Shown here: piece after piece, positions 35,135 through 54,019 of the stretch
Layout: every line of letters starts with the position of its first letter
How positions within the stretch are numbered: position 1 is the stretch's first letter
Assembly (NCBI GenBank): GCA_050015075.1
Contig: JBEKCB010000034.1
Span: forward strand, 1-58,728
Source of the DNA: Candidatus Brocadiia bacterium
GTDB taxonomy: Bacteria; Planctomycetota; Brocadiia; CAIUPP01
Direction: 5' to 3'
Length of the DNA: 58,728 nucleotides
The notes under the pieces: generated by a model
What the model was told of the DNA's origin: nothing
The model's database searches: none
Seen by the model: the letters and a program-made list of their open reading frames with translations, nothing else
Position numbers and translations under genes: made by a program

Positions 35135-35216
35135 GAAGGAAGTTCGGTACACCAACCGCCCATTTCATGCGCACTGCGGCAGGTTCTCGAACGTGACCGA
35201 TCGCAAGGAGCCACAG

Positions 35217-36986
35217 ATGCCGGGCTTGAAGCTGACCACGGAACAGGCCGCCGGACGCAGCATCATCCGAGGACTGCGCCGGACAGCGCTCATGGTGATC
35301 GTGGCAAGCGTGACCGGGTTCAGCGGCTACGCGCCCGCCGCGGACGCGGCCGATTCCAGCGCGGCGGCGAAGGCGTTTACATATAAGACTCCCCAGGGCG
35401 TGACGTTCGTGGTGACGGCCGAGGGGCTGTCGTCCATCCGGTATGCCGATCGCGAGCTCGCCACGGGCGCCTGGCGGGCTGGCAGCGGCGAGGACTGGTT
35501 CCGCTACGGCAACGGCAGGGTCGCCGCCGACAAGATCACCGAAAAGTCCCTGGAGATCCTGGACGGCAATCGCGCCCGCGTGCGCCATGTCATGCAGGAC
35601 ATCACCGCCGATTATAGTTACGTGTTCGACGGTGAAGACGTGACCGTGACCGCCCGCCTGGAGAACGCCAACCCGGCGGAGGAGATGGCCGTCGCCCGCT
35701 TTTACGGCCTGAAATTCGACTTCGGCCGGCCGCCGGCGGGCGTCATGTGCACGCAGCATATCTCGTACTTCCAGTTCCCCGGCCACGGCATTGCCATGTG
35801 CCATCCCAGCGGCTTCTCGAATATCGGCGGCAGCTACGCCGTCAACGAGGCCGTCGGGATCGGCGTCTCGCCCAGCCGGACCGGCCTGGTGCGGACGCTG
35901 ATTCTCTGGGACCACGGCGACTGGGCCCACCAGGAGACCGATCCCTGCCGGAATCTGAACTACTTCGTGGTCGCGCCGACGCCGGCCGCCGGAGCCAGGA
36001 CCTACGAGATGAAGCTCCGCGTCAGTCCCGATCGCGACTGGAAGCACCTGCTCGCCCCGTACAAAGAGCACTTCCAGGGGACGTTCGGGCCGGTGCAGTA
36101 CAAGGCCGACAACCGCTGGGCCGCCTCGTTTTACGCCAACAAGAGCATGCAGGCGGTCAGCGAGAAGAATCCTTACGGCTTCCATGACGGAATGGCGCGG
36201 CTGGACCTGCCCGAAGGAGTCCAGGCCCTGTGCGAGTTCATGCTCAAGCAGTTTCGCGAGGGCGGCGGCCAGGGAATGATCCTTTGGGGCCAGGGCGGCG
36301 AGGAGCCTCGCGGAGGCATGTACCGACCCGACTTCGACATCCTTCCGCCGGAGGTCGAGGCGCAGTGGCCGGCGCTGGCCCGGCAGTTCAAGGAGGCCGG
36401 CGTCCGCCTGGGTGTCACGGCTCGCCCGCGTCATATGGCCGTCCGCGTGAGCTGGAAGTCCGATGGGATCATTGACATCAACGCCGACGACGAAGGCCAC
36501 CGCCAGGTGCTCTGGAATCGTTTCAAGAACATGATCGCCCGCGGTTGCACCCTCTTCTACCTTGACAGCTTCGGCGACTCGCTGGAGGACGTGAAGCTCA
36601 TGCAGTTCCTCCGCCGGCAGATGGGGCCGGACATCCGGACTTTCGCCGAGCACCAGTGCGATGCGATCATGCCGTTCAGCGGCGGCTACAGCGAGACCGA
36701 ACTCAACGGCGACGCGGAGGGCAAAACCGGCAGTTATGCCTTCTGGTCCGGGCTGCGGAACTGGGAGATCTACCGCTGGCTGGCGCCGGGGTCGCAGATG
36801 GTGTCGCGTCTCTTTCGGACCAACAGCAAGGCGCCTGAGAACGTCGAGCCGGCGGAGCGGTTCTGGTTTCGCAACCACATCACGCCGTTGGTCGTCTACG
36901 GCCGGCCGACCGTCTCGGTTGCCGAACTCAAGGCCATGCAGGCCGAGTATGTTGACGATCAGGGACAGTGGAAGGACGGCCCTTAG
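35217..36986 (+). CDS. Secreted hypothetical protein (possible novel glycan-active enzyme)
   Basis: AAGGAG RBS, signal peptide and a long ORF in the operon's orientation; C-terminal LFYLDSFGD..FAEH hints at a TIM barrel. Confidence 0.6.
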   Translation: MPGLKLTTEQAAGRSIIRGLRRTALMVIVASVTGFSGYAPAADAADSSAAAKAFTYKTPQGVTFVVTAEGLSSIRYADRELATGAWRAGSGEDWFRYGNGRVAADKITEKSLEILDGNRARVRHVMQDITADYSYVFDGEDVTVTARLENANPAEEMAVARFYGLKFDFGRPPAGVMCTQHISYFQFPGHGIAMCHPSGFSNIGGSYAVNEAVGIGVSPSRTGLVRTLILWDHGDWAHQETDPCRNLNYFVVAPTPAAGARTYEMKLRVSPDRDWKHLLAPYKEHFQGTFGPVQYKADNRWAASFYANKSMQAVSEKNPYGFHDGMARLDLPEGVQALCEFMLKQFREGGGQGMILWGQGGEEPRGGMYRPDFDILPPEVEAQWPALARQFKEAGVRLGVTARPRHMAVRVSWKSDGIIDINADDEGHRQVLWNRFKNMIARGCTLFYLDSFGDSLEDVKLMQFLRRQMGPDIRTFAEHQCDAIMPFSGGYSETELNGDAEGKTGSYAFWSGLRNWEIYRWLAPGSQMVSRLFRTNSKAPENVEPAERFWFRNHITPLVVYGRPTVSVAELKAMQAEYVDDQGQWKDGP

Positions 36987-38085: not shown

Positions 38086-38365
38086 CACGGCGGGCGTGTT
38101 CCGGTACATCTCGAATTTCTGCAGAGGCCACCAGAAAAAGCACAATGCCGCGCGGCGTATCTCGTCCTCAAGCACCAAGCCGCTGGCACGGACCACTTTT
38201 TCTCGGCCGCCGCCTGGCCCAAGGCGACGCGTGTTGAGCCGACTATCGCCCGAGCCAGGACTCAGGCTCTGCCCGTCAGGATTAATCCCAACACCACTCG
38301 GCGACAGCGCCGTTTTTGCTGCGCCGGTTCCCGCTCCACGCATTCAAGCCGCGCGGGTTATTATC

Positions 38366-38395
38366 TTGACTTGCTTCGGAAGCACACCCTATAAT
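38366..38395 (+). promoter_or_regulatory. Sigma70 promoter TTGACT-N18-TATAAT for the ubiquitin-system operon, with palindrome TGCTTC-G-GAAGCA in the spacer
   Basis: Read directly; lies about 125 nt upstream of the ATG at 38520. Confidence 0.6.
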
Positions 38396-38519
38396 GCCCG
38401 CGTTGTCGAGGGCTTTGGAGATCACTCTCCGCTGGCGGGCGCTGCGGCGTAGGGCGGGTGGCAATGTTGTAACGTCGCGCGTTCCAGTATGCGGTTCGCA
38501 CCCATTTGAAGGGGCAGCC

Positions 38520-39590
38520 ATGTCCTTCGCGGTCAAATGTCAGTGCGGCAAAGTGTTCAACGTCAAGGACGAATTCCTGAATCGGCAGGTGGAGTGCCAG
38601 GTGTGCCATGCCGTGTTCACGGCGACTCCGGAAGCGGCCGCGCCGGAACCGCCGGCGGTCAGTTCGCCCTCGTCAAATGCTTCGGCTGCCGCCGCGTCGG
38701 GAAACTTCCCCTGTCCCTTCTGCGCTGAACCGATTCCGAAAGGCTCCGTCTTCTGCCCGCTCTGCGGCGAGTCTTTGGGCGGCAAGCTCACGCCGGAGCA
38801 GGGCGCCCAGTTGCTCGCGGCCGCATCCGCGCAGCTCGACCAGTACGTTCGGAACCCGGAGAACCTGTCGTCGGACGACGCTCTGCGCGGCCGGCTCTTC
38901 TCGACAATGAGCATCGTTCTCGGAATCCTTCTGGCAATCTCCGTCGCTGCGATCGTGGCCGGAGGTTTGATGCACAGAGACAGTGGGATGCCGTTGGTGG
39001 TTTTGGGGATCATCTTCGGGTTAATTTTCATCATCGCTTTTCCAATTTCGTGGGCGAACGACTATCGCGCTTCGCACATCCACGATGCGCAGAAACCCGA
39101 GCAAGCCATGCGGCGGTACTTCCTCTCCTGCCGCTCCGGCCGGCACCTGAAAGCTTTTGCGTGCCTGGCGCCCTCCGCGCGCAACGGCTCATCGGCGCAC
39201 GCGCCGAAGTTTGAGAAGATCCCGTCTGAGTCGCCCGATTGCAAGATCACGGACTGGTCGAGCTTTCGGGAATACTGCCGGACGATTTTCAAGGGGCCGG
39301 GCGGCTATCAGCGGGCCGTTTACCTGAAGAAGGTCAAGGTCGAAAAGCAACTTCCCGACGGAACGGCGTGGGTCACGGCCGAATTCCAGTTCACCAGTTT
39401 CTCCAAGTGGCTGTACCTGCTCATCCTGATCAACCTCCTCGTCTGCGCGGTCGTCGTTGCCGTGGTGACGAAGCGTGAAAAGAAGACCATACGAAAGTGC
39501 CTTTTCCGGCGCGGCGACCGATGGTACGTGGCGGAGGCGGATTTCGAAGGCGCTCTGGACAAGGCGGCTCCGGCATTCGCCGAAGCCTAG
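38520..39590 (+). CDS. Zinc-ribbon membrane protein (first gene of the ubiquitin-like operon)
   Basis: CQCG...CQVC, a Pro/Ala/Ser linker, CPFC...CPLC and 3 TM segments. Confidence 0.7.
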   Translation: MSFAVKCQCGKVFNVKDEFLNRQVECQVCHAVFTATPEAAAPEPPAVSSPSSNASAAAASGNFPCPFCAEPIPKGSVFCPLCGESLGGKLTPEQGAQLLAAASAQLDQYVRNPENLSSDDALRGRLFSTMSIVLGILLAISVAAIVAGGLMHRDSGMPLVVLGIIFGLIFIIAFPISWANDYRASHIHDAQKPEQAMRRYFLSCRSGRHLKAFACLAPSARNGSSAHAPKFEKIPSESPDCKITDWSSFREYCRTIFKGPGGYQRAVYLKKVKVEKQLPDGTAWVTAEFQFTSFSKWLYLLILINLLVCAVVVAVVTKREKKTIRKCLFRRGDRWYVAEADFEGALDKAAPAFAEA

Positions 39591-39602: not shown

Positions 39603-39899
39603 GTGAGCACCGACTCGGATAACATGACGGTCGAAGTATGGGACGCGACGGGCAACAAGAAGACCGTGGCCAGCCTCCCGCGGAACGCGCCGGTGAACCG
39701 CATCCTGGTGCTGCTGATCGAGAAGATGAACCTGCCGCGGCATAGCCCCGACGGGCAACTCATGAGCTACAAGTTCCATCACAAGGCCAGCGGAAAGCAG
39801 TTGCTCGACGAAGCCAGCCTGGAGTCCTCCGGCGTCAAAGAGGGCGATGTGCTGCGCATCCAGCCGGAGATCACCGCCGGTGCCCATGCTGAGAATTGA
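39603..39899 (+). CDS. Ubiquitin-like beta-grasp protein (YukD/EsaB-like) with C-terminal ...PEITAG-AHAEN
   Basis: 98 aa; the Ub-like C-terminal half GKQLLDEASLESSGVKEGDVLRI resembles ubiquitin [23 protein letters not shown]; adjacent to E1, JAB and E2 genes. Confidence 0.8.
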   Translation: MSTDSDNMTVEVWDATGNKKTVASLPRNAPVNRILVLLIEKMNLPRHSPDGQLMSYKFHHKASGKQLLDEASLESSGVKEGDVLRIQPEITAGAHAEN

Positions 39900-41088
39900 T
39901 TCAGGCGAGTCGAAGGAATCCGGCCGGTTCAGCCGCTTTGAACTCATCTCCTGGTGGGACCAGGATCGCCTCCGCAACGCGAGGGTGCTGGTCGTCGGGG
40001 CCGGCGCGCTGGGGAATGAGATCGTCAAGAACTGCAGCTTGCTGGGGATCGGCAATCTCCTCGTGGTGGACATGGACCGCATCGAGCTGTCGAACTTGTC
40101 CAGGTCAGTGCTGTTCCGCGAGTCGGACCGCGGCCGAAGCAAAGCAGAGGTGGCCTGCGAGTCGGCGCGCGCCATTTATCCCGATATCCGCGCCCGACCG
40201 TTCGTGGGGAACATCGTCCACGACCTCGGCCTCGGCGCCTATTTCTGGGCGGACGTGGTCATCGGCGGGCTTGACAACCGCGAGGCTCGCGTCGCCATCA
40301 ACTCCGGCGCGATGTTCGCCGGGAAACCGTGGATTGACGGCGCCATCGAGGCGCTCGACGGCGTGGCGCGGGTATTCCTGCCCGGCGACGGGCCGTGCTA
40401 TGAGTGCACGATGAGCGAGCTGGACTGGAAGCTCCTGCAGGCGCGCCGCTCCTGCGCGCTCCTCACGCGCGACGAAATGCTTGAGGGAAAGGTCCCCACC
40501 ACTCCGACGACGGCCAGCATCATCGCGGGCTTTCAGACGCAGGAGGCCGTCAAAATCCTTCATGGCATGGAGCCGATCGGCGGGCAGGGGTTCGTCTTCT
40601 CGGGCCTCGGCGGCGAGGCATACCTCGTCCGATACACCCGAAAGCCGGACTGCGGCGCGCACGACACGGCGGAGCGCGTGGAGCCGCTGGGCCATGGAGT
40701 CGGCGCGGTGACGGTGGGGGACCTGCTGGAAAGGGCCCGCCGCGATTTGGGCGGGGAGGCGGTGATCGGGCTCAGCCGCGACGTCGTTGCCGCGCTGATC
40801 TGTCCGAAGTGCGATCGCCGCGAAACCCTCTTCCGTTCCCTGGGCCGGGTGACGGAGGCCGAAGCGCTCTGCCCGGACTGCGGCGACCCCCGCGCGCCGG
40901 AGACGATCCTGACCGTCGCGCCCGATTCCGGGTTGAGCGACCGCACCTTCTCGGAAATCGGCCTGCCCGAATTCGACGTGGTCGTTGCCCGGCGCGGCGA
41001 AGCGTCGGTCGCTTATCTTTTCGATGGCGACGCCGAGCGCGTTCTGGGCGAACTGCGCCCCATGGACCTCAAGGAGTCCCCCAGTTGA
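39886..41088 (+). CDS. E1-like ThiF-family adenylyltransferase (ubiquitin-activating enzyme)
   Basis: VVGAGALGNE, DMDRIELSNLSR, GLDNREAR, CYEC...RRSC (putative catalytic Cys), PTT, and an extra C-terminal zinc ribbon CPKC..CPDC. Confidence 0.88.
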   Translation: MLRIDSGESKESGRFSRFELISWWDQDRLRNARVLVVGAGALGNEIVKNCSLLGIGNLLVVDMDRIELSNLSRSVLFRESDRGRSKAEVACESARAIYPDIRARPFVGNIVHDLGLGAYFWADVVIGGLDNREARVAINSGAMFAGKPWIDGAIEALDGVARVFLPGDGPCYECTMSELDWKLLQARRSCALLTRDEMLEGKVPTTPTTASIIAGFQTQEAVKILHGMEPIGGQGFVFSGLGGEAYLVRYTRKPDCGAHDTAERVEPLGHGVGAVTVGDLLERARRDLGGEAVIGLSRDVVAALICPKCDRRETLFRSLGRVTEAEALCPDCGDPRAPETILTVAPDSGLSDRTFSEIGLPEFDVVVARRGEASVAYLFDGDAERVLGELRPMDLKESPS

Positions 41089-42428
41089 CGAAGAACGAGT
41101 CAACCCCCGGCGCGAAGAAGTCCGATTTCGGCCGCATCGAAATGAAGGACCTCAAAGCGGCGAAGTTCCCGGTGAATCTCGCCGGCGAGTACCGCGTCCA
41201 TCTCACCCGGAACGCCGGCGACAAGATGAAAGCCCACGCCGCAACGACCAGCGAAGTTGAACTGTGCGGCGTTCTCGTCGGCGAGATCTGCAAGGACGAC
41301 CTGGGCGCCTTCGTCGAGATCTCCGATGTCATCGAGGGCCGGGCGGCGAACAATTACGGGTCCCAGGTGACGTTCACGCACGAGACGTGGTCGCACATTC
41401 ATTCCGCCATGGACCAGAAGCACCCGGGAAAGCGCATCGTGGGCTGGTATCACACGCATCCCGGGTTCGGCGTGTTCCTTTCCGGCATGGATACGTTCAT
41501 CCAGGAGAACTTCTTCAACGAGCCCTACCAGGTGGCGATCGTCATCGAGACGAAACAGCAGCAACTCGGTTGCTTTGCGTGGAAGAACGGGAAGTCCGTG
41601 CCGCTGAGGCGCCTCTGGATCGGCGACGACGAGGTCCTGCTCCAGACGGGCGAGGCGGAGCCGTTCGACCCTGAAGCTCGGTCGTCGCAGAAGTCCGAGC
41701 GGGAACCGGAGCCGGCCCGGCAAGGCGGCCGGCCGAGCTGGGGCCTCGGCACGCTGCTCGGCATCGCGTGCGGCTGCATGGTCGGGTGGCTCGCCGGCCG
41801 CTACATCTCCGCGGCCGAAGTCCAGCGCGCGGCGATGGATTCCATCCAGTCGGAGGTCTACTCGATACTGGAATACGCCGCCATGAACGTGTCCGCGGGC
41901 AAGGACTTTGAGGACGTTGAAGACCGCCTCGGCAAGATCGAGGGGCTGCTGAAGGACCACAAAGAGAAGGAGGCCCTCGAGGCGCTCCAGGGCTGCGAGA
42001 AAATGATTGCCGGGATCAAGGGCACGTACCAACTGGACCGATCCCGATTCCGGAGCGATATGGCCGACGTGGCCGCGCGGAAGCGCACCCTGGCGCAGAG
42101 CGTCCAGGCGACCGAGCAACGCGAGTCGGTGCTCGAGGAGTACCTTGCAGATCTTTACCTGACAAGGATCAACTCATTTTTCGCTGAAGCCGGAACGACC
42201 GACTTGGCCAAATTCCCGCCGCAGCTCCAGCAGATGGTCAAGATATGCCTCGACCGGTCGCTGACTCTGTGTCCGGAGGCCAAGCCCCAAATCCAGCAGA
42301 TGTATCCCGGCCTCATCGAGTTCTTCTATCCGGAGCCGAAGCCGCCAGCGGGTGCCGCGGAGGGAAAGCCTGGCGCTGAAAAGGCGCCGCGAGGGAAGAC
42401 AAGCACAACGCCGGAGGCCGCGCGATGA
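41085..42428 (+). CDS. JAB/MPN+ (Mov34) metalloprotease with a TM anchor and helical C-terminal domain
   Basis: ELCGVLVG and JAMM motif GWYHTHPGFGVFLSGMD; TM GLGTLLGIACGCMVGWLAG. TTG start overlaps the E1 TGA, with an AAGGAG RBS. Confidence 0.85.
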   Translation: MTKNESTPGAKKSDFGRIEMKDLKAAKFPVNLAGEYRVHLTRNAGDKMKAHAATTSEVELCGVLVGEICKDDLGAFVEISDVIEGRAANNYGSQVTFTHETWSHIHSAMDQKHPGKRIVGWYHTHPGFGVFLSGMDTFIQENFFNEPYQVAIVIETKQQQLGCFAWKNGKSVPLRRLWIGDDEVLLQTGEAEPFDPEARSSQKSEREPEPARQGGRPSWGLGTLLGIACGCMVGWLAGRYISAAEVQRAAMDSIQSEVYSILEYAAMNVSAGKDFEDVEDRLGKIEGLLKDHKEKEALEALQGCEKMIAGIKGTYQLDRSRFRSDMADVAARKRTLAQSVQATEQRESVLEEYLADLYLTRINSFFAEAGTTDLAKFPPQLQQMVKICLDRSLTLCPEAKPQIQQMYPGLIEFFYPEPKPPAGAAEGKPGAEKAPRGKTSTTPEAAR

Positions 42429-42465: not shown

Positions 42466-43527
42466 ATGGCTGACGTGACGATCACCCGCGAGGAACTGAA
42501 CGACCCGAAGATTGACGAGGTGATTAACCTCGAGAAATCGCTCGCGCAAACCGGGGGACAATTCATCGAGGACGTGAAGACGCCGTTCTATCTGAACCCG
42601 GTCGTCTACTACGCCACGGCCTGCGTGCTCGGGGCGTTCTCGGCGTGGTGCGTTTTCGAGCCGTTCTACAACGAGGGGCCGGGCCCGGGGATTCCCTTCG
42701 TCAGCGACTATCTCCTGTTCGGTTTGGCGGCGGCGCTCATGGGGTTGGCCATGGGCGTGATATACGGCGCGGCAAACCACAACGGGCGGGACTGCTTCTA
42801 CTGTGGCGCCGTCGGCGTCGGCGTGGGGCTCCTTGCAACGATCGTGACAACGCTCCTGGCGGACCTCTGTTTCGGCGTCCTCTCACATATCGCCCTCGCG
42901 ATATCCGGCCGGAAAGGCTATGTCCGCTTTGCCGACCTGCGGGGCGGGGCATTCTTTCTGGCCATGTGCGGGCGGGCGCTCGCCTGGGCGATCGTCAGCG
43001 CGGGCGCCGGGCTCGGCCTGGGCGTCGCCTTGAAGTCCAAGAAACTGATCTTGAACGGACTGGCCGGCGGGCTGGTAGGCGGCACGCTCGGCGGATTGCT
43101 CTTCGACCCGATCGGACGGTGGCTGCTCAGCGCGCAAAGCAGCGCCGCCGCGAGCCGCGCGGTCGGAATGACGGCCATCGGGCTGCTCGTCGGGCTCTTT
43201 GTCGGGTTGTTCGAGAATATTTCCAAGGACTCCTGGTTCCTGATGCTCAAAGGCCCGCTGGCGGGCAAACAGTTCAGCATCTTCAAGAGCCCGATGACCA
43301 TCGGCTCGGCCCCCAAGCGCAACATCTACCTCTTCAAGGACGCCGAGATAGACCCTCTGCACGCAAGCGTCATCAAATCCGGCAACCGGTACATGCTTCA
43401 AGATGAGGGCAGCAAGAGCGGGACGTTTGTAAACGGGCGCCGGGTGGACAAGTACGTCCTTCGCCCGGGTGACGTCGTCACGATCGGCCAGACGGTCCTG
43501 AAGTATCATGAGAAACAGAAATCGTAA
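42466..43527 (+). CDS. Multi-TM membrane protein with a C-terminal FHA domain
   Basis: About 7 Gly-rich TM segments, then TIGS...H...LQDEGSKSGTFVNG...LRPGDVVTIG. Confidence 0.8.
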   Translation: MADVTITREELNDPKIDEVINLEKSLAQTGGQFIEDVKTPFYLNPVVYYATACVLGAFSAWCVFEPFYNEGPGPGIPFVSDYLLFGLAAALMGLAMGVIYGAANHNGRDCFYCGAVGVGVGLLATIVTTLLADLCFGVLSHIALAISGRKGYVRFADLRGGAFFLAMCGRALAWAIVSAGAGLGLGVALKSKKLILNGLAGGLVGGTLGGLLFDPIGRWLLSAQSSAAASRAVGMTAIGLLVGLFVGLFENISKDSWFLMLKGPLAGKQFSIFKSPMTIGSAPKRNIYLFKDAEIDPLHASVIKSGNRYMLQDEGSKSGTFVNGRRVDKYVLRPGDVVTIGQTVLKYHEKQKS

Positions 43528-43550: not shown

Positions 43551-44357
43551 TTGGGAGAAGGGACCACTAAAGGGACGACGCAGGTCTGCCCGAACTGCGG
43601 TGCCAGGCTGGCGGTCACGCCCGAGTTGCTCGGGCGGAAGTGCCGGTGCGCCCAATGCATGAAGGTATTCATCGCCGGCGAAGAGGCGCCGGCGCAAGCC
43701 GCGTCGGCGCAGCCGATGCCGGGTCCTTCCGTGGAAGCGCCTCCGGCGCGGCCGGCGGCTGCTGCAACTCCGCCGCCCGCGGCGGCGTCCGCCGCGCCCA
43801 TCTCGCCCGCCGACGATCTTCCGGAGTTCATGAAGGCGAACCGCAGGATCGCTCAACGCGCCTGCTCGAGGTGCGGCGCGCAGCTTGAATTGGGCGACGA
43901 TGTCTTCAACTGTCGCGCTTGCGGTTCCAGTATGCATCAGGCCTGTCACACCGCCGTCGGCGGCTGCGCGAATCCCTCCTGTCCGCAAACGAAAGTCGGC
44001 GGCGAACTTTCACTGGTGTCCGCACCGCCCGTGGAGAGTCCTCCGGCCGCGCCCATGGCCGCCGACGAGACACCCTGCCGGTTCTGCGGCGAGCGGATCA
44101 AGGTCGGCGCCCGGAAGTGCCGATTCTGCAATGAATTCCAGTCGGAAGCCGACCGCGGGAAAGCCCAAGGAAGGACTCCCTCGGACGAGAAGCTCAACGC
44201 TTGGGAAATCCTCCTGGGCATCCTGTGCGCCGGCATCGGCTGTATCGTGGGCATTGTCTATATCGTTCAGGGCAAGAAGAAGGGCTGGAAGCTGTTGTTG
44301 CTTTCGATCATCATGTGGATTATCTTTTACATCATCAGGGCGGCGGCTAAGCGGTAG
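43551..44357 (+). CDS. Zinc ribbon + prokaryotic RING finger + zinc ribbon + 2 TM (putative E3)
   Basis: CPNC..CAQC; RING C-x2-C-x12-C-x2-C-x4-H-x2-C-x6-C-x4-C at 43863-43982; CRFC..CRFC; start uncertain. Confidence 0.75.
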   Translation: MGEGTTKGTTQVCPNCGARLAVTPELLGRKCRCAQCMKVFIAGEEAPAQAASAQPMPGPSVEAPPARPAAAATPPPAAASAAPISPADDLPEFMKANRRIAQRACSRCGAQLELGDDVFNCRACGSSMHQACHTAVGGCANPSCPQTKVGGELSLVSAPPVESPPAAPMAADETPCRFCGERIKVGARKCRFCNEFQSEADRGKAQGRTPSDEKLNAWEILLGILCAGIGCIVGIVYIVQGKKKGWKLLLLSIIMWIIFYIIRAAAKR

Positions 44358-44392
44358 CTGGTCCCGGCCTGAAGGTGCGCCGGAGAGAATCC

Positions 44393-45007
44393 ATGGCCGA
44401 GGCTGACGCGAAGTCCGACATCCATGTGCTTGCGGCGGAGTCTTCGACGGCGGGCAAGATGTGCTCGATTTGCCAAAGCCAGATCATCATGGGCGAGCGC
44501 ATCCTGAAGTGTCCGTCGTGCACGCTGCCGTTTCATAAGGACTGCTGGATCGAGAACGGCGGTTGCGCGCAGTACGGTTGCAAAAGCGCCCCGCAAACGG
44601 CGAAGTCCGAACCGGCCTCGGGCTTGGCGAGCAACGTCTGGGGCGAAGAGAAGCCCTGTCCATCGTGCAGGAAACTGATCCGCGCTCAGGCGGTCAAGTG
44701 CCGGTTCTGCGGTGCGAGCTTCGGGACGTCCGAGATCCTCTCGGCCGACCAGTATGCCAGCCGGGAGTACGAGGGACAGGAGCACCTGCGAGTGCGGAAC
44801 AAAGTCATTGGCCTGTTCCTCGCGTCCCTCACGGGCTTCCTCTCGCCCATAACGGTCATCCTGTTCGCGCTGCTCGTTTTCGGCAAGCGCTTTTACGGTA
44901 TTGAGTACCGGCGTCTGCCTCAGGCCATCCGCGCGTTGGCCTGGATCGGCTTGGGGATCAGCGGCCTGTTCGTTTTGCTCCTCGTCCTGTTCGTGGCTTT
45001 CGATTGA
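44393..45007 (+). CDS. Prokaryotic RING finger + zinc ribbon + 2 TM (putative E3)
   Basis: CSICQSQIIMGERILKCPSCTLPFHKDCWIENGGCAQYGC at 44462-44581; CPSC..CRFC; GGAG RBS. Confidence 0.8.
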   Translation: MAEADAKSDIHVLAAESSTAGKMCSICQSQIIMGERILKCPSCTLPFHKDCWIENGGCAQYGCKSAPQTAKSEPASGLASNVWGEEKPCPSCRKLIRAQAVKCRFCGASFGTSEILSADQYASREYEGQEHLRVRNKVIGLFLASLTGFLSPITVILFALLVFGKRFYGIEYRRLPQAIRALAWIGLGISGLFVLLLVLFVAFD

Positions 45008-45018
45008 ATCGGCGGGTT

Positions 45019-46332
45019 ATGGCTGAAACACCTGAAGCGATGGTCGCGAGCAGCTTTCAGGCCGGCAACACGTGCCCGGCATGCCAGCGGCTCATCGAGG
45101 AGAATCAGCGGATCATCCGGTGCGACCAGTGCGGCGGACTGCACCACGAGTTGTGCTGGCAGGTGCAGGCCGGATGCTCGTCGTACCATTGCGATAAGCG
45201 GGCGCGTGCGGACTTCGGCCGGCTCCAGGCCGATCTCGTGATCAGCGCCTCCGACGCCGAGCGTGTGGTGGTGCCGCCAATGCCGCCGCGTGCGCGGACC
45301 GAGGAGCTGGCGCGGATGTACCTCCCTGAAGAGCCGAAGCGCCTCAGCAGGCTGGCGGTCGCAGCCTCGGTCCTGGCCGTTCTGAGTGCGATGACCGTGT
45401 GGGGTGTGGCCGCTGAGACTTGGCCGCTCGCCGTGTGCGGGTTCGCGCTGGCCCTGATCGCCCTCGTCACGGGCATCATCGGCCTCGTGGTCATTTACAC
45501 GGGCGGGAGGGCCAAGGGACTGAAGCTTGCCGGGACCGCGCTCGGCTTCACCGCCGCGGTGATGCTCGTCTCGGTGGGCATCCTCGCGCTGCGGGAAAGG
45601 GGGTCGCGCGGAGACTCCGCCGCGGTCCTTGACTTCTCCAACAGCGCGCCGAGCGAGGAGACGCTCAGCCGTCTTGATCCGATCAAGGCCAACGCGCTGC
45701 GGGCGAACGTCGTCGTCCGGGCGCAAGGCGGCGGATGGCTCTCCAGCGCGACGCTCTTCGGCTCGGGGACCATCTTGAGGGTCGTCGGCCAGCGGGCGTT
45801 TATCCTCACCAACCGCCATGCGATCGAGCACGAGGGCGCCATTTTGAAACGTATCGAGGTTCTGTTCCACAACGGCGAGCGGAGCGGGGCCGTCGTGGAG
45901 TGGCTGGCCCCGGGCGGAATGGACATCGCCATCCTCTCGTGCCAGGCGCTCACGCTGACGGGAATTGAACCGGCGAAGCTCGCCTCGGACCTTGCGGCGC
46001 AGAGCGAGCGCGTCTTTGTCATCGGGAACCCTCTGAACCTCTCCTGGAGCTACAGTGAAGGGGTGATTTGCGCCACGCGCTCCCAGAACACGGGAGACCG
46101 CGCGATTTCCGTGTACCAGACCCAGGCGCCGACCCGTCCCGGCAGCAGCGGAGGCGGATTGTACGACATGAGCGGCACCCTGCTGGGGGTGAACACGTGG
46201 ACGGAAAACACCACGACCGGCGAGGGCATGTCGTTCGCCATCTCCACGAAGAGCATCTTGGAAGCGCTGCCGGCAGAGGCCGCCGCCCGCTTCCTGCAGC
46301 AGGGCGCCGAGGCGCCGCAAGGGGCGCAGTAA
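45019..46332 (+). CDS. Prokaryotic RING finger + 3 TM + trypsin-like serine protease
   Basis: RING at 45073-45192; catalytic triad LTNRH, MDIAIL and PGSSGG. Alternative TTG start at 45004 overlaps the previous stop. Confidence 0.85.
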   Translation: MAETPEAMVASSFQAGNTCPACQRLIEENQRIIRCDQCGGLHHELCWQVQAGCSSYHCDKRARADFGRLQADLVISASDAERVVVPPMPPRARTEELARMYLPEEPKRLSRLAVAASVLAVLSAMTVWGVAAETWPLAVCGFALALIALVTGIIGLVVIYTGGRAKGLKLAGTALGFTAAVMLVSVGILALRERGSRGDSAAVLDFSNSAPSEETLSRLDPIKANALRANVVVRAQGGGWLSSATLFGSGTILRVVGQRAFILTNRHAIEHEGAILKRIEVLFHNGERSGAVVEWLAPGGMDIAILSCQALTLTGIEPAKLASDLAAQSERVFVIGNPLNLSWSYSEGVICATRSQNTGDRAISVYQTQAPTRPGSSGGGLYDMSGTLLGVNTWTENTTTGEGMSFAISTKSILEALPAEAAARFLQQGAEAPQGAQ

Positions 46333-47249
46333 TGAGCACCATGCGACTTCGCCGACTGAAGGCTGACTACGACAAGATCTGCACGATGTTCAGCGGCAAG
46401 TCGCCCATCCGCGTCAAAGAGGCCCGTGGCACGCCGCCGGAGAAATACCAGATCGAGTTCCTCGTGACGAGCCTGCAGCAAGACCCGATGACGCACGCAC
46501 TCCGCAGCCACAACTGCTTTATCGCCGAGATCACGCTCACGGCGGCGTACCCGCGTATGGCGCCGCAATGCCGGATGATCACACCTGCTTTCCATCCCAA
46601 TATCGCTCCGCACGCCATCTGCATCGGCGACCACTGGGCTGCGGGCGAATCGCTCCCGTTTCTCATTGTGCGTATCGCCGAGATGGTCGCGTTTCAATCG
46701 TACAATGTCAAGAGCCCGCTCAACGGCGAGGCCGCCCGCTGGGTCGAAGCGAACAAAGCCAGCGTCCCGACCGACACGCGTGACTTCTCCGCGCTGCTTT
46801 CCGTCGGCGAGGCCGTCGCCCGCAGCCGGGACGGCGCCGTAGTGACCAGCTCCGAATGCGCTAACTGCGGAAAGCCCGCCGGCGCGGCGCCGATGAAAGT
46901 CTGCGTCAACCAGCACACCACGTGCGACGACTGCGCGCTGGAGTGTGCGGTCTGCAAGAGCGTGCTCTGCCTGAAATGTCCTCAGGAGCGTTGCGCGCTC
47001 TGCGGCGCCACGGCTTGCCACCGCTGCCTGGTGCGGTGCAACTGCTGCAACCGGATCGCCTGCTCAAAGCACGCCGGTCCATGCCACGTCTGTGGGCTGG
47101 GAACCTGCGCGGAATGCCTCGTCCGCTGCGACGCGTGCGGGCGGCTCGCCTGCGTCCAGCACATCACCAAAGCGCTGGTTGACGGCGGGAGGAAATACCA
47201 TTGCACGGCATGCACCGGCCAGGCCCAACAGCCGCACGCGCTCTCCTGA
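46332..47249 (+). CDS. E2 ubiquitin-conjugating (UBC) enzyme with a C-terminal multi-zinc-finger tail
   Basis: RLRRLKADY, YPRMAP, FHPNIAPHAIC (catalytic Cys), W, and SPLNGEAA; 14 Cys/His ligand pairs follow; TAATG overlap with the protease stop. Confidence 0.88.
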   Translation: MSTMRLRRLKADYDKICTMFSGKSPIRVKEARGTPPEKYQIEFLVTSLQQDPMTHALRSHNCFIAEITLTAAYPRMAPQCRMITPAFHPNIAPHAICIGDHWAAGESLPFLIVRIAEMVAFQSYNVKSPLNGEAARWVEANKASVPTDTRDFSALLSVGEAVARSRDGAVVTSSECANCGKPAGAAPMKVCVNQHTTCDDCALECAVCKSVLCLKCPQERCALCGATACHRCLVRCNCCNRIACSKHAGPCHVCGLGTCAECLVRCDACGRLACVQHITKALVDGGRKYHCTACTGQAQQPHALS

Positions 47250-47782
47250 CCGCCGAGGTTGAATGGGCGTCAGGCCAGGCGGCGTCAGCCCATACGTCCG
47301 CAGAGGCGACTGCGGCCAGGCGCGCCTACGGTTTTCTTCTGCCCCCCGAAGCGGATCTGGCCTGCGACGCGCGCACAAACTGGACCTACCTGCTCATCCT
47401 GCTGGCCTTTCTGATCCTGCCGTTCGTGGTCCGGTTCGAGCCGAAGGTGAGTGCCTCTCCGACACTCTTCGGTTTCAACCTTCCGTCCATGTGTCCCTGC
47501 CGCGAGATTTTCGGAGTGAATTGCCCCGGCTGTGGGCTGACTCGTTCCTTTGTACTGCTCGCGCACGGACATATCGGCGAGTCGCTGCGGTACCACCGGC
47601 TGGGGATTGTGCTCTATGGGGTCTTCGGTTGGCAGGCGATCTTCCGCATCTGCTGCATCGCGCGGCGGTCACGGCCGATCCCGCATTCCTTACTCACTTT
47701 GCAACGGGTGGTTCCGGCAGTCGTGATCGTTCTATTGATCGTGAACTGGGCGGTGAATCTGCTCCCGCTGCCATATCTGTGA
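47201..47782 (+). CDS. DUF2752-family small membrane protein (true start unresolved)
   Basis: CPCREIFGVNCPGCGLTRSF..LAHG signature with flanking TM helices. Confidence 0.7.
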   Translation: MHGMHRPGPTAARALLTAEVEWASGQAASAHTSAEATAARRAYGFLLPPEADLACDARTNWTYLLILLAFLILPFVVRFEPKVSASPTLFGFNLPSMCPCREIFGVNCPGCGLTRSFVLLAHGHIGESLRYHRLGIVLYGVFGWQAIFRICCIARRSRPIPHSLLTLQRVVPAVVIVLLIVNWAVNLLPLPYL

Positions 47783-50511: not shown

Positions 50512-51840
50512 TCAGGCCGGCTTCCCGATGTCCTGAAGCGTGCCGGCGATGCACAACAGCGTTTTGCGCTTCGACCGATCGTCGGGTATCTTCATCGCCT
50601 CCAGCTCAGCTCGCAGCCGTTCGAGATCCCGCGCGTAGTCCGCGCGCGCCGCCGGCGCCATGCGGTTCAGCAGATAGACGGGCGGGCCCGGCGCGGCCGG
50701 GTTCTCGGGCCACACGAGCGGTTCGAGCGACAGCGGGCCATCTCCCAGGCGAAAGCTCGAACGAGAGAAGTAGGCCTCCTCCGCGCGCGCAAACCAGTCG
50801 GAAAGGCCGTCCAGTTGATTCCCGCTCACGCCGTACACTGAGGCGAGCGCCTCGGCCAGCGCGGCTTCGGCCGACACTTGCGGCGAGGAAAGAATGCGGG
50901 CGCCCGTCCGCCAGGACAGTTCTTCAACCGGGTTCGCGAACGGACGATAGAAGTACTCGCAGGCGCGCCCGCCGTCCTCATACAGGCGCTTGAGCGCGCG
51001 CGCGGAAGAAAGCCCGCACGGCGCGAACCACCGGAGACGATCCCAATGCATCGGCGGCTCAACGAAAACGCCGCCCACGGAACCGAACGCGCAGGCGATC
51101 TCCCGAACCAGCGAAGCGCGGTCCCGGCCGGGCGAACGGGCCGACCGTTCCTCGACCTCAACCATGTAGTCCACGGCTTTCGAGATGCGGCGGAGGTGCG
51201 GCAGGTCCTGCGCGTTCTCCAGGCGCATTCCCCAGCCCGCCTGGCCCACAACCCAGTCGGGCCGGCCGGCGTGGACGTGCTCGGCGCACTTGATCAGCAG
51301 GGCCGCATGATACTCGGCCTGGCTGAGCGGCCGGCATTTCTCGCATTCGCAACGTCCCTCGTCCGCCGATTGCATGCTCAGGCCGTCCAGGCCCCACGCG
51401 GGATCCATCATAAAATCCAGCACCTGTCGCTGCCAGTCCCAGGCCGCCGGGCTGGACCCGCACATGACGCGGCGCGGGCCCGCGGAGACGCCGGGCGCCT
51501 TGGCGATGATTTCGTCGAATCCCCACGAGTAGATGCCTGCACCGGCGAGGACCTTCACCCCTCGCGCATGGGCGGCCTCCACGAAGGCGTGCAGCCGCGC
51601 GGCGCGCGAATCGTCCACAACGTTCTTCAACGGCGCAGGCCATGACCGCGCCACGAACAATCCCCAGACGAGATTGTATTCGATTCCGAGTTCAGACTGG
51701 ACGTCAAGAAAGCGCACCTGGTCGGCGAAAAGCTGATCGTCCCAGCGAATGCTGGGCCACTCCTCATTGGGAATCGGCTCGGAAGCCAGGTCTCGAACCC
51801 AGCCGACCGTGACGCGATACGTGAACGGCGGTGAACTCAC
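50512..51840 (-). CDS. Hypothetical protein (possible TIM barrel with a CxCxxC motif)
   Basis: Long ORF in the operon's orientation with a GGAG RBS; FVEAAHARGVKV, LDGLSMQSAD and CECEKC. Confidence 0.6.
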   Translation of the reverse strand: MSSPPFTYRVTVGWVRDLASEPIPNEEWPSIRWDDQLFADQVRFLDVQSELGIEYNLVWGLFVARSWPAPLKNVVDDSRAARLHAFVEAAHARGVKVLAGAGIYSWGFDEIIAKAPGVSAGPRRVMCGSSPAAWDWQRQVLDFMMDPAWGLDGLSMQSADEGRCECEKCRPLSQAEYHAALLIKCAEHVHAGRPDWVVGQAGWGMRLENAQDLPHLRRISKAVDYMVEVEERSARSPGRDRASLVREIACAFGSVGGVFVEPPMHWDRLRWFAPCGLSSARALKRLYEDGGRACEYFYRPFANPVEELSWRTGARILSSPQVSAEAALAEALASVYGVSGNQLDGLSDWFARAEEAYFSRSSFRLGDGPLSLEPLVWPENPAAPGPPVYLLNRMAPAARADYARDLERLRAELEAMKIPDDRSKRKTLLCIAGTLQDIGKPA

Positions 51841-51884
51841 GGAGGCGATCTCCTATCGTTTTCGGGCCCCTCGACAGCTTCGGC

Positions 51885-52208
51885 TCACAGGGGCGCGCCG
51901 CGCGGGTGCGGTTGAGTCGTTGCGCCGGCGTCCACGCAGATCGTCTGCCCGGCGATGTATTCGGCCTGCGCGCCGGCCAGGAAGGCCACGCAGGCGGCGA
52001 TCTCCGCCGGGACTCCCGCCCACCCCAGCTCGGCCGTTTCCTGAAGGTCCTTCTCGGACCGGCCGCAGAGGAACACGCGCATCCCCTCGGCGCCCAGGCG
52101 CAGGCAAATGCCGCGCCCGATGCCGCTGCCGCCGCCGGTCACGAGCGCGCTCTGGCCTTTGAGGTCGGGGTCACAGGGTCCCTGCGGAGGGCGAATGACG
52201 TCGGACAT
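51885..52208 (-). pseudogene. SDR oxidoreductase with an in-frame internal deletion
   Basis: N-terminal LKGQSALVTGGGSGIG is joined directly to C-terminal GWAGVPAEIAACVAFL..YIAGQTICVDAG; no YxxxK; 107 aa. Confidence 0.75.
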
Positions 52209-52220
52209 GCGCGGCTTCTC

Positions 52221-53423
52221 CTATGGAAGCGCAGCCGAGCCGTCGGGAAGGCGCGCGAGCGTCCACTGCGGAAGGGAGTTGGCGCAGGGATATTTCGCCG
52301 CCTTGGCCTCGTCCAGGTCTATGCCGAGGCCCGGCCGGTCATTGGGATAGGCGTATCCGTCGCGCACCTCGGGACAGCCGGGGAAGACCTCGCGCTCGGC
52401 GTCGGTGAACCCGGACCACTCCTGAACGCCGAAGTTCGGCGCGCTGATGTCGAGGTGAACGTTGGCTGCGTGGCCGACCGGCGAGACATCCGGCGGCCCA
52501 TGCCACGCGGTGCGGATTCCGAACGCCTCGCAGAGCGCGGCCAGTTTCCGCGCGGGGGTGATTCCGCCGATGGCGCTGACGTGGCAGCGGATGAAGTCAA
52601 TCAGGCGGCCCTCGATGAGCGGCATCCACTCGCAGGGGTTGGTGAAGAGTTCGCCCATCGCCAGCGGCATGACGCACTGTTGCCGAATCGCGCGGAACCA
52701 CTCGATCTGCTCCGGCGGCAGAGCGTCTTCCAGGAAGAAAAGCCGGTACGGCTCCAGCGCCTTGGCGAGACGAACCGCCTCGAACGGGGGCAGGCGTTCG
52801 TGGATGTCGTGCAGCAGCTCGACCTCGAAGCCGAGCTTGCTCCGGAGATGTTCGAACAGCCGGGGGATGTTCCGGGCGGCGGCGTCCGGATCGTGATAAG
52901 CGCCGGGCAGCGCGCCTTCGGGCTTCCGGCGGGCCGGCGCCGCGCCCTGGTAGCCGCCCATCTGGCAGCGGATGACGCGATATCCCTGCTCGATGAAGGC
53001 GCGCGCTCTTTCCTCGACTTGCGCCGCGTCGCGGCCGTCGGCATGGCGATAGACCGTCACCCCCTCGCGGCATTTCCCGCCCAGCAGTTCATACAGCGGC
53101 ATCCCCGCGAGCTTGGCCTTGATATCCCACAGCGCCATGTCCACGCCCGACAGGGCGTTGTTCAGCACCGGCCCGTTGCGCCAGTACGAGCTGACCCACG
53201 ACGTGCGCCAGAGGTCCTCGATCCGCTGCGTCTCCTTCCCGCGCAGGAAGGGCCGAAGGAACTCCTCGACGGCGACCTTGACCGGTGTGTGCCGCTGCGT
53301 GAACGTCGCGCAGCCGAGGCCGTAAAGACCCGGCTCGGACGTCTCAACCTTGACCACGATCAGTTGAGCGGATCCCGGCTGGGTCAGAATGACGCGGATG
53401 TCGCGGATCGTGATCGGGGGCAT
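52221..53423 (-). CDS. Enolase-superfamily sugar-acid dehydratase (mannonate dehydratase/RspA-like)
   Basis: GLGCATFTQR, YWRNGPVLNNALSGVDMALWDIK, LLHDIHERL, FFLED, MGELF and WHGPPDVSP; AAGGAG RBS. Confidence 0.88.
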   Translation of the reverse strand: MPPITIRDIRVILTQPGSAQLIVVKVETSEPGLYGLGCATFTQRHTPVKVAVEEFLRPFLRGKETQRIEDLWRTSWVSSYWRNGPVLNNALSGVDMALWDIKAKLAGMPLYELLGGKCREGVTVYRHADGRDAAQVEERARAFIEQGYRVIRCQMGGYQGAAPARRKPEGALPGAYHDPDAAARNIPRLFEHLRSKLGFEVELLHDIHERLPPFEAVRLAKALEPYRLFFLEDALPPEQIEWFRAIRQQCVMPLAMGELFTNPCEWMPLIEGRLIDFIRCHVSAIGGITPARKLAALCEAFGIRTAWHGPPDVSPVGHAANVHLDISAPNFGVQEWSGFTDAEREVFPGCPEVRDGYAYPNDRPGLGIDLDEAKAAKYPCANSLPQWTLARLPDGSAALP

Positions 53424-54019
53424 ATCGTCTCCTTGGAAGTCCGATCTCCACCGGGAGTGCCGGGGACGCGCGGCCTGCTCCCGCAATTCCCTTCCATCCC
53501 GGACTGCCCTCAGCGCGTTGAGGCTGCTTCTACCACGGCGCAACACTCCAGTCAACCCGGACCCGTGCGCGCGGCGGGAGAGCGTTGGACATCCGGCCTG
53601 GATCCCTCGCGCCTGGAGTTTTCCTTGCGGGGCGAGGCCGCCGGCTCGACGAAGAATCTCCGCATTTCCGCCCCTGGCAATTCAAGGGTCTGCAAGCTGC
53701 AAGTCCGCCCGCTTCGGCTTCTCCTTACCGCCCAAAGTCGCCGACATCAAGTGCCCGTTATGCTCATCTCGCAAGTCAATCGGATTCCCGTCGGGGTCTC
53801 TGGTCTGCTCGCAGGTCAACGCCATCCGGACCTCGGTTACGAAGATGAACCGTGCCGAACGCTCCCTGATATTCACGCAACGACAGGCGGAACCCCGGGC
53901 AGGGTCTTTCTTGCAAATTGCGCGCGTGCCGGTGATAATCTGCTGCGCTGCTCAAGAGAGGGGACGTCAGACAGTTGAAGGATTAGAGCCGGTTTCGCAA
54001 CCTCCTCAAGGGATAGGCC

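Follow-up and report, generated by a model that had tools for sequence, protein, structure and literature searches.

Predicted membrane proteins with Prok-RING_1 fingers in a Ubl conjugation-type operon of a Candidatus Brocadiia bacterium

Gene content of the operon

The window analysed here, that is, the whole stretch of 58,728 nt, is the forward strand of contig JBEKCB010000034.1 (assembly GCA_050015075.1) from a Candidatus Brocadiia bacterium (Planctomycetota; Brocadiia; CAIUPP01). It contains a plus-strand operon of ten genes, encoding in order a Zn-ribbon membrane protein, a YukD-like Ubl, an E1, a JAB peptidase, an FHA membrane protein, RING1, RING2, RING3, an E2 and a DUF2752 protein (Table 1), with intergenic distances of -53 to +50 bases. 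In the window, the stop of RING2 and the start of RING3 share 4 bases. The stop of RING3 and the start of the E2 overlap by the same length in 19 of 26 distinct loci, as scored with a nearest-start heuristic, which is biased towards short distances. One promoter-like consensus match (11 of 12 positions) lies at 38366-38395, and the number of such sites in the window is not higher than in shuffles. The stretch is present in 24 runs labelled 'peat metagenome', typed as DNA by the tool's guess, and none of the runs listed was an RNA run.

Table 1. Genes of the operon, with window coordinates and the matches that identify them
Gene product	Coordinates	Strand	Evidence
Zn-ribbon membrane protein, operon gene 1	38394..39590	+	weak Zn_Ribbon_1/DZR matches; 3 hydrophobic helices
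Ubl, YukD-like beta-grasp precursor	39624..39899	+	PF08817 YukD 34.8 bits (cut-off 27)
E1-like adenylating enzyme	39847..41088	+	ThiF PF00899 172.9 bits
JAB/JAMM metallopeptidase, long helical tail	41142..42428	+	JAB PF01398 45.4 bits; Prok-JAB 28.5 bits
Polytopic membrane protein, C-terminal FHA	42466..43527	+	FHA PF00498 54.9 bits; Yop-YscD_cpl 57.4 bits; 5 hydrophobic segments
RING1	43551..44357	+	PF14446 34.0 bits; finger 1 at 43863-43982
RING2	44375..45007	+	PF14446 45.8 bits; finger 2 at 44462-44581
RING3, HtrA-like protease fusion	45004..46332	+	Trypsin_2 73.1 bits; PF14446 29.0 bits; finger 3 at 45073-45192
E2, UBC core and ~150-aa Cys-rich tail	46332..47249	+	UQ_con 33.2 bits (cut-off 27)
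DUF2752 membrane protein, final gene of the operon	47201..47782	+	PF10825 63.6 bits

Some start positions may need revision. In 8 related loci an orthologue of gene 1 lies in the equivalent position, with alignments beginning at residues 41-43 of the query, and gene 1 probably starts downstream of 38394. The E1 is likely to start a few codons downstream of 39847, and the database copy of RING2 begins at the ATG at 44393.

The catalytic residues of the partner proteins are conserved: E41, H105, H107, S115 and D118 of the JAB peptidase occur in all 17 sequences compared, H88, P89, N90 and C97 of the E2 in all 20, and the protease triad of RING3 (H272, D307, S382) in all 21. The protease domain shows likeness to HtrA, DegP and DegS at scores under the cut-offs of those models. 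Orthologues of the E1 in related loci are 43-69% identical, the FHA membrane protein is also found in related loci, and DUF2752 lies downstream of the E2 in most of them. All 15 Ubl orthologues carry ...QPEITAG, followed by anything from none to many variable residues, and two stop exactly at ITAG. The window Ubl has a 5-residue tail beyond ...EITAG, so that its end before the tail is Ala-Gly, not Gly-Gly. To our knowledge, YukD itself is not known to be conjugated.

A six-frame search of the window for C-x2-C-x12-C-x2-C-x4-H-x2-C-x6-C-x4-C returned three matches in total, one in each of RING1, RING2 and RING3, and the same three were returned with relaxed spacings, confirming the three C4HC3 copies of the first-pass annotation at their positions. 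In 200 mononucleotide shuffles of the window, there were 0 exact and 0 relaxed matches in total. The fingers occupy residues 105-144, 30-69 and 24-63 of their respective ORFs. When the fingers of the window are aligned with those of 20 related loci (49 fingers in all), the eight ligands are the sole invariant columns, and the residues between them are indeed divergent, as had been remarked (finger 2 shares 26% identity with finger 1 and 29% with finger 3).

The same annotation had described different partner domains, and profile search and hydropathy agree, giving Zn-ribbons in RING1 and RING2 and Trypsin_2 in RING3. RING1 consists of an N-terminal Zn-ribbon, a Pro/Ala-rich linker, the finger, a second Zn-ribbon and a C-terminal two-helix membrane hairpin (aa 220-266); RING2 of the finger, a Zn-ribbon and a two-helix membrane hairpin; and RING3 of the finger, three hydrophobic helices (aa 117-191) and the Trypsin_2 domain (aa ~253-396). 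The predicted membrane helices thus number two, two and three. Topology throughout the operon was derived solely from the hydropathy script, which gave clear hydrophobic helices in 7 of the 10 proteins, with an eighth, the JAB peptidase, borderline (aa 202-220, KD 1.60); the topology so predicted would place the RING3 protease domain across the membrane from its finger. The AF2 model of full-length RING2 has a pLDDT of 82.8, with its membrane helices at 94-98.

Family and predicted fold of the fingers

The fingers were scored against Prok-RING_1 (PF14446, curated cut-off 29.1 bits) and against the PHD and C1 models. In the whole-protein scores (Table 1), RING3 lies 0.1 bits under the Prok-RING_1 cut-off; as domains in the genome search, fingers 1, 2 and 3 score 37.8, 42.9 and 33.1 bits, all above it. 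At E ≤ 0.01, Prok-RING_1 matches 49 of the 49 related fingers, compared to 31 for PHD and 23 for C1_1, and for each finger it is the best-scoring of the three models (lowest E 1.4e-13 versus 1.8e-5 and 5e-6, respectively). PHD (PF00628) stays below its 24-bit cut-off, with 20.5 bits on finger 2 and 11.4 bits on whole RING3, RING1 and RING2 being unlisted. C1 (PF00130, cut-off 26.5 bits) is above its cut-off on RING2 (29.2 bits) and below it on RING1 (21.4 bits) and RING3 (14.9 bits).

Bacterial versions of Prok-RING_1 carry transmembrane helices according to the Pfam description, and RING1, RING2 and RING3 all have predicted helices. The gene context associated with PF14446 is also found, with Ubl, E1, E2 and JAB all present in the operon and in related loci, and PF14446 is found in all 20 relatives of RING2 of near-equal length. 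On these profile results, the three fingers are members of the Pfam Prok-RING_1 family. The first-pass annotation had made the same call, and the much weaker scores of PHD bear it out; it had also pointed to a likeness to RING-CH/MARCH ligases, of which the shared C4HC3 order stands, but the RINGv model has no match in RING1-3 at E ≤ 1 and does not appear among the matches listed for the 49 fingers (25 of 37 families).

Ligands 1 to 6 are spaced as in PHD and C1 fingers, and the C1 consensus includes H-x12-C. In a search of the PDB, the finger profile matches PHD and C1 chains alongside RING chains. Together with the PHD and C1_1 matches above, including the C1_1 score over cut-off on RING2, this favours an alternative in which the fingers are not E3 modules at all, but PHD- or C1-like binders of peptide, Ubl or membrane lipid, while the E2 transfers Ubl unaided. 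We consider this very unlikely. Prok-RING_1 is ahead on every finger, and the C1-type His, 12 residues before the first Cys, occurs among the window fingers in RING2 only and is not kept in 18 RING2 orthologues. The fingers are strictly linked to an E2, and one database protein (n = 1) fuses a RING2-type protein to an E2 (PF14446 36.9 bits, UQ_con 45.5 bits).

The AF2 model of finger 2 (pLDDT 84.4) has a beta-hairpin followed by a helix. Its best structural neighbours in VIA are RING E3 domains, namely HRD1 (Z 5.1, rmsd 2.1 over 47), RNF12 (Z 4.8) and EL5 (Z 4.5), all Z values being at or below 5.1, a range that the tool calls common. This list, headed by RING E3 domains, also argues against PHD- or C1-like binders; the RING domains of RNF13 and RMR1 are among the neighbours as well. 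Foldseek against the PDB returned no match at E ≤ 0.001 for the finger model (all E ≥ 0.048), and its best rows mix RING-H2 and PHD, so RING and PHD are indistinguishable by fold here. RING and PHD fingers are both cross-brace. The model weakly suggests a fold resembling RING-H2 and PHD cross-brace fingers, and the fingers presumably bind zinc.

A RING:E2 structure prediction, proposed in the first-pass annotation as a check, was run for the E2 core and a finger, and gave scores of 0.60, 0.60 and 0.63, compared to 0.00 for the best of three controls, with a partner pLDDT of at least 76 and at least 94% of contacts shared between runs. Of 157 solved complexes, 116 reach the pass mark for this score, as do 2 of 215 mismatched pairs, but passing scores at or below 0.60, which comprise 18 of the 157 solved complexes and both passing mismatches, form a weak band, and the pass may reflect likeness only, because RING:E2 pairs are abundant among solved structures. 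The prediction thus gives weak support to docking of finger and E2. Taken together, gene context, fold likeness and the weak complex prediction suggest that the fingers may have E3 activity.

Conservation and paralogy of the finger proteins

Related loci were collected with RING2 and with the E2 as seeds. The operon is colinear in many genomes, mostly of Planctomycetota, with a fixed order of RING1-RING2-RING3-E2. Three fingers are present in 11 of 22 RING2-seeded loci, 3 further loci being interrupted by contig ends, and at least three in 9 of 16 judgeable E2-seeded regions, 14 of which contain a RING2-type gene. RING2 is the only finger in four loci (L017, L019, L095 and L098), and the RING1 and RING3 fingers are absent from distant operon variants. 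RING2 is the near-constant finger protein.

The fingers are 26-29% identical among the RING1-3 paralogues, compared to 44-60% among orthologues. In a finger tree built on 62 columns, RING1 forms a clade with support of 100/99 and RING2 one with 93/81, while RING3 is not resolved; group labels were set by identity to the fingers of the window, and one protease-fused finger (L016) is grouped with RING2. Judged from these comparisons, the three fingers are old paralogues and not a recent expansion. The 'expanded set' of ligases put forward in the first-pass annotation is therefore misleading, since the fingers are ancient paralogues kept in a fixed order across many genomes, not a local expansion. 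Its broader interpretation holds in part: the Prok-RING_1 family stands, and its proposal of service by one E2 fits the single UQ_con match in the genome (93.6% complete), which is the E2 of the operon, and the three PF14446 matches, which all lie within the operon.

The eight ligands of RING2 and a Trp that follows ligand 6 show no variation among 19 orthologues. RING1 in the close clade of the window lacks this Trp as well as a hydrophobic residue between ligands 1 and 2; in the same clade, the hydrophobic residue is found in 19 of 21 RING2 fingers, and the Trp in 21 of 21 RING2 and 17 of 17 RING3 fingers. The possibility that RING1 is a degenerate partner that does not bind E2 was considered, and is weakened by the E2-seeded sample, in which RING1 retains Cys-Trp in the distant three-finger operons L084, L086, L087, L088, L090 and L091, indicating that the divergence of RING1 is clade-specific.

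The three proteins might also act as independent E3s, each bringing E2~Ubl to its own membrane targets via its partner domains; this differs from our preferred reading, set out below, in assembly only. The different partner domains and the age and separation of the fingers are in keeping with independence, as are the one- and two-finger operon variants, which indicate that the finger proteins are separable. On the other hand, the order of RING1-RING2-RING3-E2 is fixed, the genes are joined by the 4-base overlaps described above, and, apart from their small Zn-ribbons, RING1 and RING2 contain hardly any extracytoplasmic or other substrate-binding domain. Independent action is possible, but on the whole we find it doubtful.

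Proposed mechanism and relation to known systems

With moderate confidence, we favour the reading that the fingers serve as E2-docking modules of RING type (binuclear, cross-brace) within a single membrane-anchored Ubl conjugation system, encoded by the ten-gene operon. In the corresponding mechanism, the JAB peptidase would trim the variable Ubl tail to expose ...ITAG, and the E1 would adenylate the Ubl and hand it to the active-site Cys of the one E2. The fingers of RING1-3, anchored via helical hairpins on the cytoplasmic side of the inner membrane, would then recruit E2~Ubl, and the Ubl would be moved onto membrane-proximal targets, from which the JAB peptidase could remove it. RING2 may be the core ligase, with RING1 and RING3 as accessory ligase subunits in the clade of the window, and RING3 could form a physical link between the conjugation system and an HtrA-like protease in the periplasm.

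A more speculative extension, which at present seems improbable to us, is that RING1, RING2 and RING3 join via their membrane hairpins into one heteromeric ligase with RING2 as the catalytic core, that the RING3 protease senses or cuts envelope proteins, and that the fingers attach Ubl to those same proteins or to the FHA partner. If true, such a ligase would be a bacterial counterpart of the three-RING ligases (Pex2/10/12) or of ERAD ligases, and the system a trans-membrane quality-control or signalling device made from ubiquitin parts in a bacterium. Like the proteins of the window, Pex2, Pex10 and Pex12 are three different membrane RING proteins, and they act with ubiquitin machinery at one membrane; in the accessible text of PMC9279156, each has five membrane segments and together they form a channel, compared to two, two and three predicted helices here. 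The likeness to Pex2/10/12, HRD1 and PA-TM-RING proteins is one of analogy only, with no sequence relationship past the finger fold.

Prokaryotic operons of Ubl, E1, E2 and JAB genes with Prok-RING family 1 were reportedly predicted by computation by Burroughs, Iyer and Aravind (Mol Biosyst, 2011), a study which we take to be the source of Pfam PF14446. Those operons have the same finger family and partners (YukD-like Ubl, ThiF-type E1, UBC-type E2 and JAB) as the one described here, from which they probably do not differ in kind. This kind of operon is already known from the 2011 family definition, and the present finding adds no new kind. Hosts of related operons include Planctomycetes, Actinobacteria and Acidobacteria, according to the part of PMC4197634 available to us. 

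An archaeal operon with a similar logic, which speaks for the conjugation reading, is the Ub-E1-E2-srfp(RING)-Rpn11 operon of Caldiarchaeum subterraneum, which functions in vitro: Rpn11 cuts the pro-Ub tail, and the small RING protein is required for transfer (PMC5654768, as far as its accessible text goes). It has one E1, one E2 and a pro-modifier with a C-terminal tail removed by JAB/Rpn11, as would be the case here, and it differs in having one soluble RING-H2 protein and a modifier ending in Gly-Gly, in contrast to three C4HC3 fingers on membrane proteins and a YukD-like modifier ending in Ala-Gly. Relative to the same text, the operon of the window adds the FHA, protease and DUF2752 genes.

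Bil (BilABCD) and CBASS Cap2/Cap3 likewise bring E1, E2 and JAB proteins together with a Ubl or target in one bacterial operon, as described in the accessible part of the preprint PMC10557695, and these systems raise the question of an antiviral role, in which, regardless of how the fingers act, infection would lead to tagging of phage or host membrane proteins. The same part of that 2023 preprint calls operons of this kind, with Ubl, E1, E2, RING and DUB, uncharacterised, and states that an antiviral role is predicted for them. The distribution is sporadic, as a defence system might be: of 301 genomes sampled from the phylum, 53 contain PF14446 and 21 an E2 orthologue, the latter scattered over many families; PF14446 is absent from all 15 genomes of the class to which the window belongs; and record titles of the related loci span several phyla. 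However, PADLOC yields weak generic matches for the E1 (BilD at 21.1 bits and CBASS E1-E2 at up to 56.4 bits) and for the JAB peptidase (models labelled 'JAB' only), and none for the Ubl, the E2, the fingers or the FHA protein; among the BilABCD models, BilD alone matches the operon, and neither PADLOC nor NCBIfam includes models for fingers, Ubl or E2. The neighbours scanned in the window include sugar-metabolism genes, a GNAT and an ASRT-domain protein, and no integrases, phage genes or defence genes. The abundance of hydrophobic helices in the operon is also unlike Bil, and both Bil and CBASS Cap2/Cap3 are without a RING E3 and membrane anchoring. We regard a defence role as unlikely.

Returning to a membrane-anchored Ubl conjugation system with RING-type E2-docking fingers, no bacterial experiments on Prok-RING Ubl operons were found in the searchable literature. 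RING ligases are the largest enzyme class in eukaryotic ubiquitin signalling, and their diversification is an open question. The bacterium studied here keeps a fixed module that comprises one E1, one E2 and three different membrane RING-type proteins. Together with its one- and two-finger relatives, it offers a small natural series in which to ask whether bacterial RING fingers act as E3s, and how one E2 may be shared by several E3s at a membrane.

Motif, family and fold of the fingers

The proteins RING1, RING2 and RING3 each carry a 40-residue finger, and translation gave all three the ligand spacing C-x2-C-x12-C-x2-C-x4-H-x2-C-x6-C-x4-C. Scanning the entire window in six frames turned up no further copy, even with relaxed spacings, and the motif was absent from 200/200 shuffled windows. 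Three tandem fingers with identical spacing, as proposed in the first-pass annotation, were thus borne out, as were the divergence of the residues between the ligands and the different partner domains.

The proposed membership of Prok-RING family 1 was also upheld against PHD: in a set of 49 fingers, drawn from 20 related loci as well as the window, the Pfam model Prok-RING_1 (PF14446) matched 49/49 (best E 1.4e-13), while PHD matched 31/49, far more weakly. C1_1 and zf-RING_2 matched 23 and 14 of these fingers, with scores far below those of Prok-RING_1. For PF14446 (cut-off 29.1 bits), the whole-protein scores of RING1, RING2 and RING3 were 34.0, 45.8 and 29.0 bits, and a six-frame genome search gave domain scores of 37.8, 42.9 and 33.1 bits for fingers 1, 2 and 3. 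RING2 also scored above the C1_1 cut-off (29.2 vs 26.5 bits), but its orthologues do not conserve the N-terminal His required of a C1 domain.

An AF2 model of finger 2 from a 49-row alignment has a confident core (mean pLDDT 84.4, core blocks 90–94) and consists of a beta-hairpin followed by a helix. A Foldseek search with this model gave no match at E ≤ 0.001, its top rows being RING-H2 and PHD fingers. RING E3 domains came out on top in an exhaustive VIA search, with HRD1 (Z 5.1, rmsd 2.1 over 47) followed by RNF12 (Z 4.8) and EL5 (Z 4.5). Such low scores are usual for a domain of 50 residues. From the model and these searches, the predicted fold is placed in the RING/PHD group of binuclear fingers. 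RING is preferred over PHD on the family model and the gene context; the fold does not decide.

The operon and its flanks

In 2011, Burroughs, Iyer and Aravind reportedly predicted operons combining a ubiquitin-like protein (Ubl), E1, E2 and a JAB peptidase with Prok-RING fingers, and the window operon is a further example of this kind. The 2011 prediction is cited for related operons in Planctomycetes, Actinobacteria and Acidobacteria in a passage of PMC4197634, and a passage of PMC10557695 terms Ubl/E1/E2/JAB/RING operons uncharacterised. The genes are tightly packed, with intergenic gaps of -53 to +50 bases, and the genome (93.6% complete) has 3 PF14446 matches and 1 UQ_con match, all within the operon.

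Features of the operon and its flanks
Feature	Position	Strand	Remark
Open frame	35193-36986		597 aa; high third-position G+C; no Pfam match (E ≤ 0.1)
Terminator-like hairpin	38299-38312		just upstream of gene 1
Promoter-like site	38366-38395		11/12 match; just before gene 1; number of such sites in region not above shuffles
Gene 1		+	Zn-ribbon membrane protein
Gene 2		+	YukD-like Ubl
Gene 3		+	ThiF-type E1
Gene 4		+	JAB peptidase
Gene 5		+	polytopic FHA protein
Gene 6	43551-44357	+	RING1 (translation)
Gene 7	44375-45007	+	RING2 (translation)
Gene 8	45004-46332	+	RING3 (translation)
Gene 9		+	UBC-type E2
E2 C-terminal tail	46800-47249		~150 aa; Cys-rich; many C-x2-C pairs; no Pfam match
Gene 10		+	DUF2752 membrane protein
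Open frame	50512-51840	-	442 aa; high third-position G+C; no Pfam match (E ≤ 1e-5)
Open frame	51831-53978		715 aa; high third-position G+C; no Pfam match (E ≤ 1e-5)

The catalytic HPN...Cys of the E2, the JAMM residues of the JAB and the His-Asp-Ser triad of the RING3 protease are intact, and are conserved in 20/20, 17/17 and 21/21 sequences, respectively. In 15/15 orthologues, the Ubl ends in ...QPEITAG plus a variable extension of 0 to many residues, as is typical of a precursor trimmed ahead of activation. By hydropathy, RING1 and RING2 each terminate in a two-helix hairpin, and three helices separate the RING3 finger from its HtrA-like protease, so that the HtrA-like domain would sit across the membrane from the finger. 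The E2 tail is confined to a close clade, the E2 having ~290–323 aa in the related loci L001–L014 and 157 aa in L017, L019 and L021.

The operon is flanked by sugar-metabolism genes, a GNAT and an ASRT-domain protein, with no mobile-element or defence genes among the flanking ORFs scanned. On the operon itself, PADLOC gave weak generic matches to the E1 and JAB only.

Relatives and history of the three fingers

Only 20 near-length relatives of RING2 were found in a 5.8-billion-protein collection, all with PF14446 and one of them fused to an E2. This last protein, P0021 (361 aa), joins a RING2-type finger, Zn-ribbon and hydrophobic helix to an E2 in a single frame; its second membrane helix seems shortened, so that either a genuine fusion or a frameshift in the gene call could account for it. 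A RING2-seeded scan of species-representative genomes gave 75 loci, including 22 full-length relatives. Three fingers stand in the same order in 11/22, the entire operon being colinear where the contig permits; of the rest, 3 are truncated where the contig stops, and two fingers are present in 4 loci and one in another 4. Six records sharing the operon with Planctomycetota (L009, L010, L012, L014, L021, L022) are titled Victivallales, Anaerolineales, Verrucomicrobia, Sumerlaeota, Anaeromyxobacter and Hydrogenedentes, which reflects either lateral transfer or binning errors.

Because the first search was seeded on RING2, it was repeated from the E2, whose core has orthologues at ≥ 49% identity in 21/301 sampled Planctomycetota genomes, the window's own counted. 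Of 20 regions around these E2 genes, 16 had enough upstream sequence to judge, and in these there were three or four fingers in 9, two in 3 (one of them carrying another finger downstream of its E2), one in 2 and none in 2; a RING2-type gene was present in 14/16. Four fingers arise by tandem duplication of the RING1 gene in L087 and L090, and L090 has a shortened last loop in both RING1-type fingers. L092 (G285:C2) and L097 (G073:C187) have a close E2 orthologue (50–55% identity), followed by DUF2752 in L092, but genes for a Ubl, E1, JAB or finger are absent from the ~11.7 kb upstream; these E2s may be orphans or lie in a different gene order.

In distant variants, the RING1 orthologue consists only of Zn-ribbon, linker, Zn-ribbon and hairpin, or is without the first Cys pair, and the protease is without a finger. 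In the finger tree, RING1 forms a clade (100/99) and RING2 a group (93/81), with RING3 unresolved. RING1 and RING2 are 32% identical over 105 aa spanning finger, linker and Zn-ribbon, and the likeness of RING2 to RING3 is limited to the finger. Together, the locus surveys, tree and pairwise likeness show that RING1–3 are ancient paralogues within a conserved module, of which RING2 is the near-constant member.

The finger family is large and this operon type sporadic: PF14446 occurs in 53/301 sampled genomes of the phylum and 0/15 of the window's class, and a finger profile matched 9,266 representative proteins at E ≤ 0.001 (1,263 at E ≤ 1e-10). Family f24 of the phylum (e.g. G054, G214, G276, G291; loci L023–L062) has 15 to at least 21 PF14446 fingers per genome in 10/10 sampled genomes, in open frames of 72 to 1891 aa, and a single distant E2 was found with the window's E2 core (30–35% identity) in 9/10, as though RING-like fingers had multiplied greatly there over a single E2. 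The representative proteins P0022–P0024, P0026 and P0032 each carry four or five PF14446-type fingers in a chain of 300–800 aa.

Proposed conjugation cycle

The most economical reading of the operon is a membrane-anchored Ubl conjugation cycle, in which the JAB would trim the Ubl, the E1 would activate it, the single E2 would carry it, and the fingers would dock E2~Ubl at the membrane. Docking is weakly supported by a complex prediction of the E2 core with the finger, which scored 0.60, 0.60 and 0.63 against 0.00 for the highest of 3 controls, with partner pLDDT ≥ 76 and at least 94% of contacts common to runs. The tool's calibration rates a score of 0.60 as a weak pass; since RING:E2 pairs are common among solved structures, the score shows likeness more than binding. 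The operon has the same logic of parts as the archaeal Caldiarchaeum operon, described in a section of PMC5654768 as working in vitro and requiring its RING protein.

The three finger proteins may act as one heteromeric ligase or as separate E3s. Their fixed gene order and the overlaps between stop and start codons lean towards co-assembly, and the variants with one or two fingers show that the parts are separable. Published experiments on bacterial operons of this type were not found in the literature searched. Part of the value of this operon lies in the natural series of one, two and three fingers that it offers.
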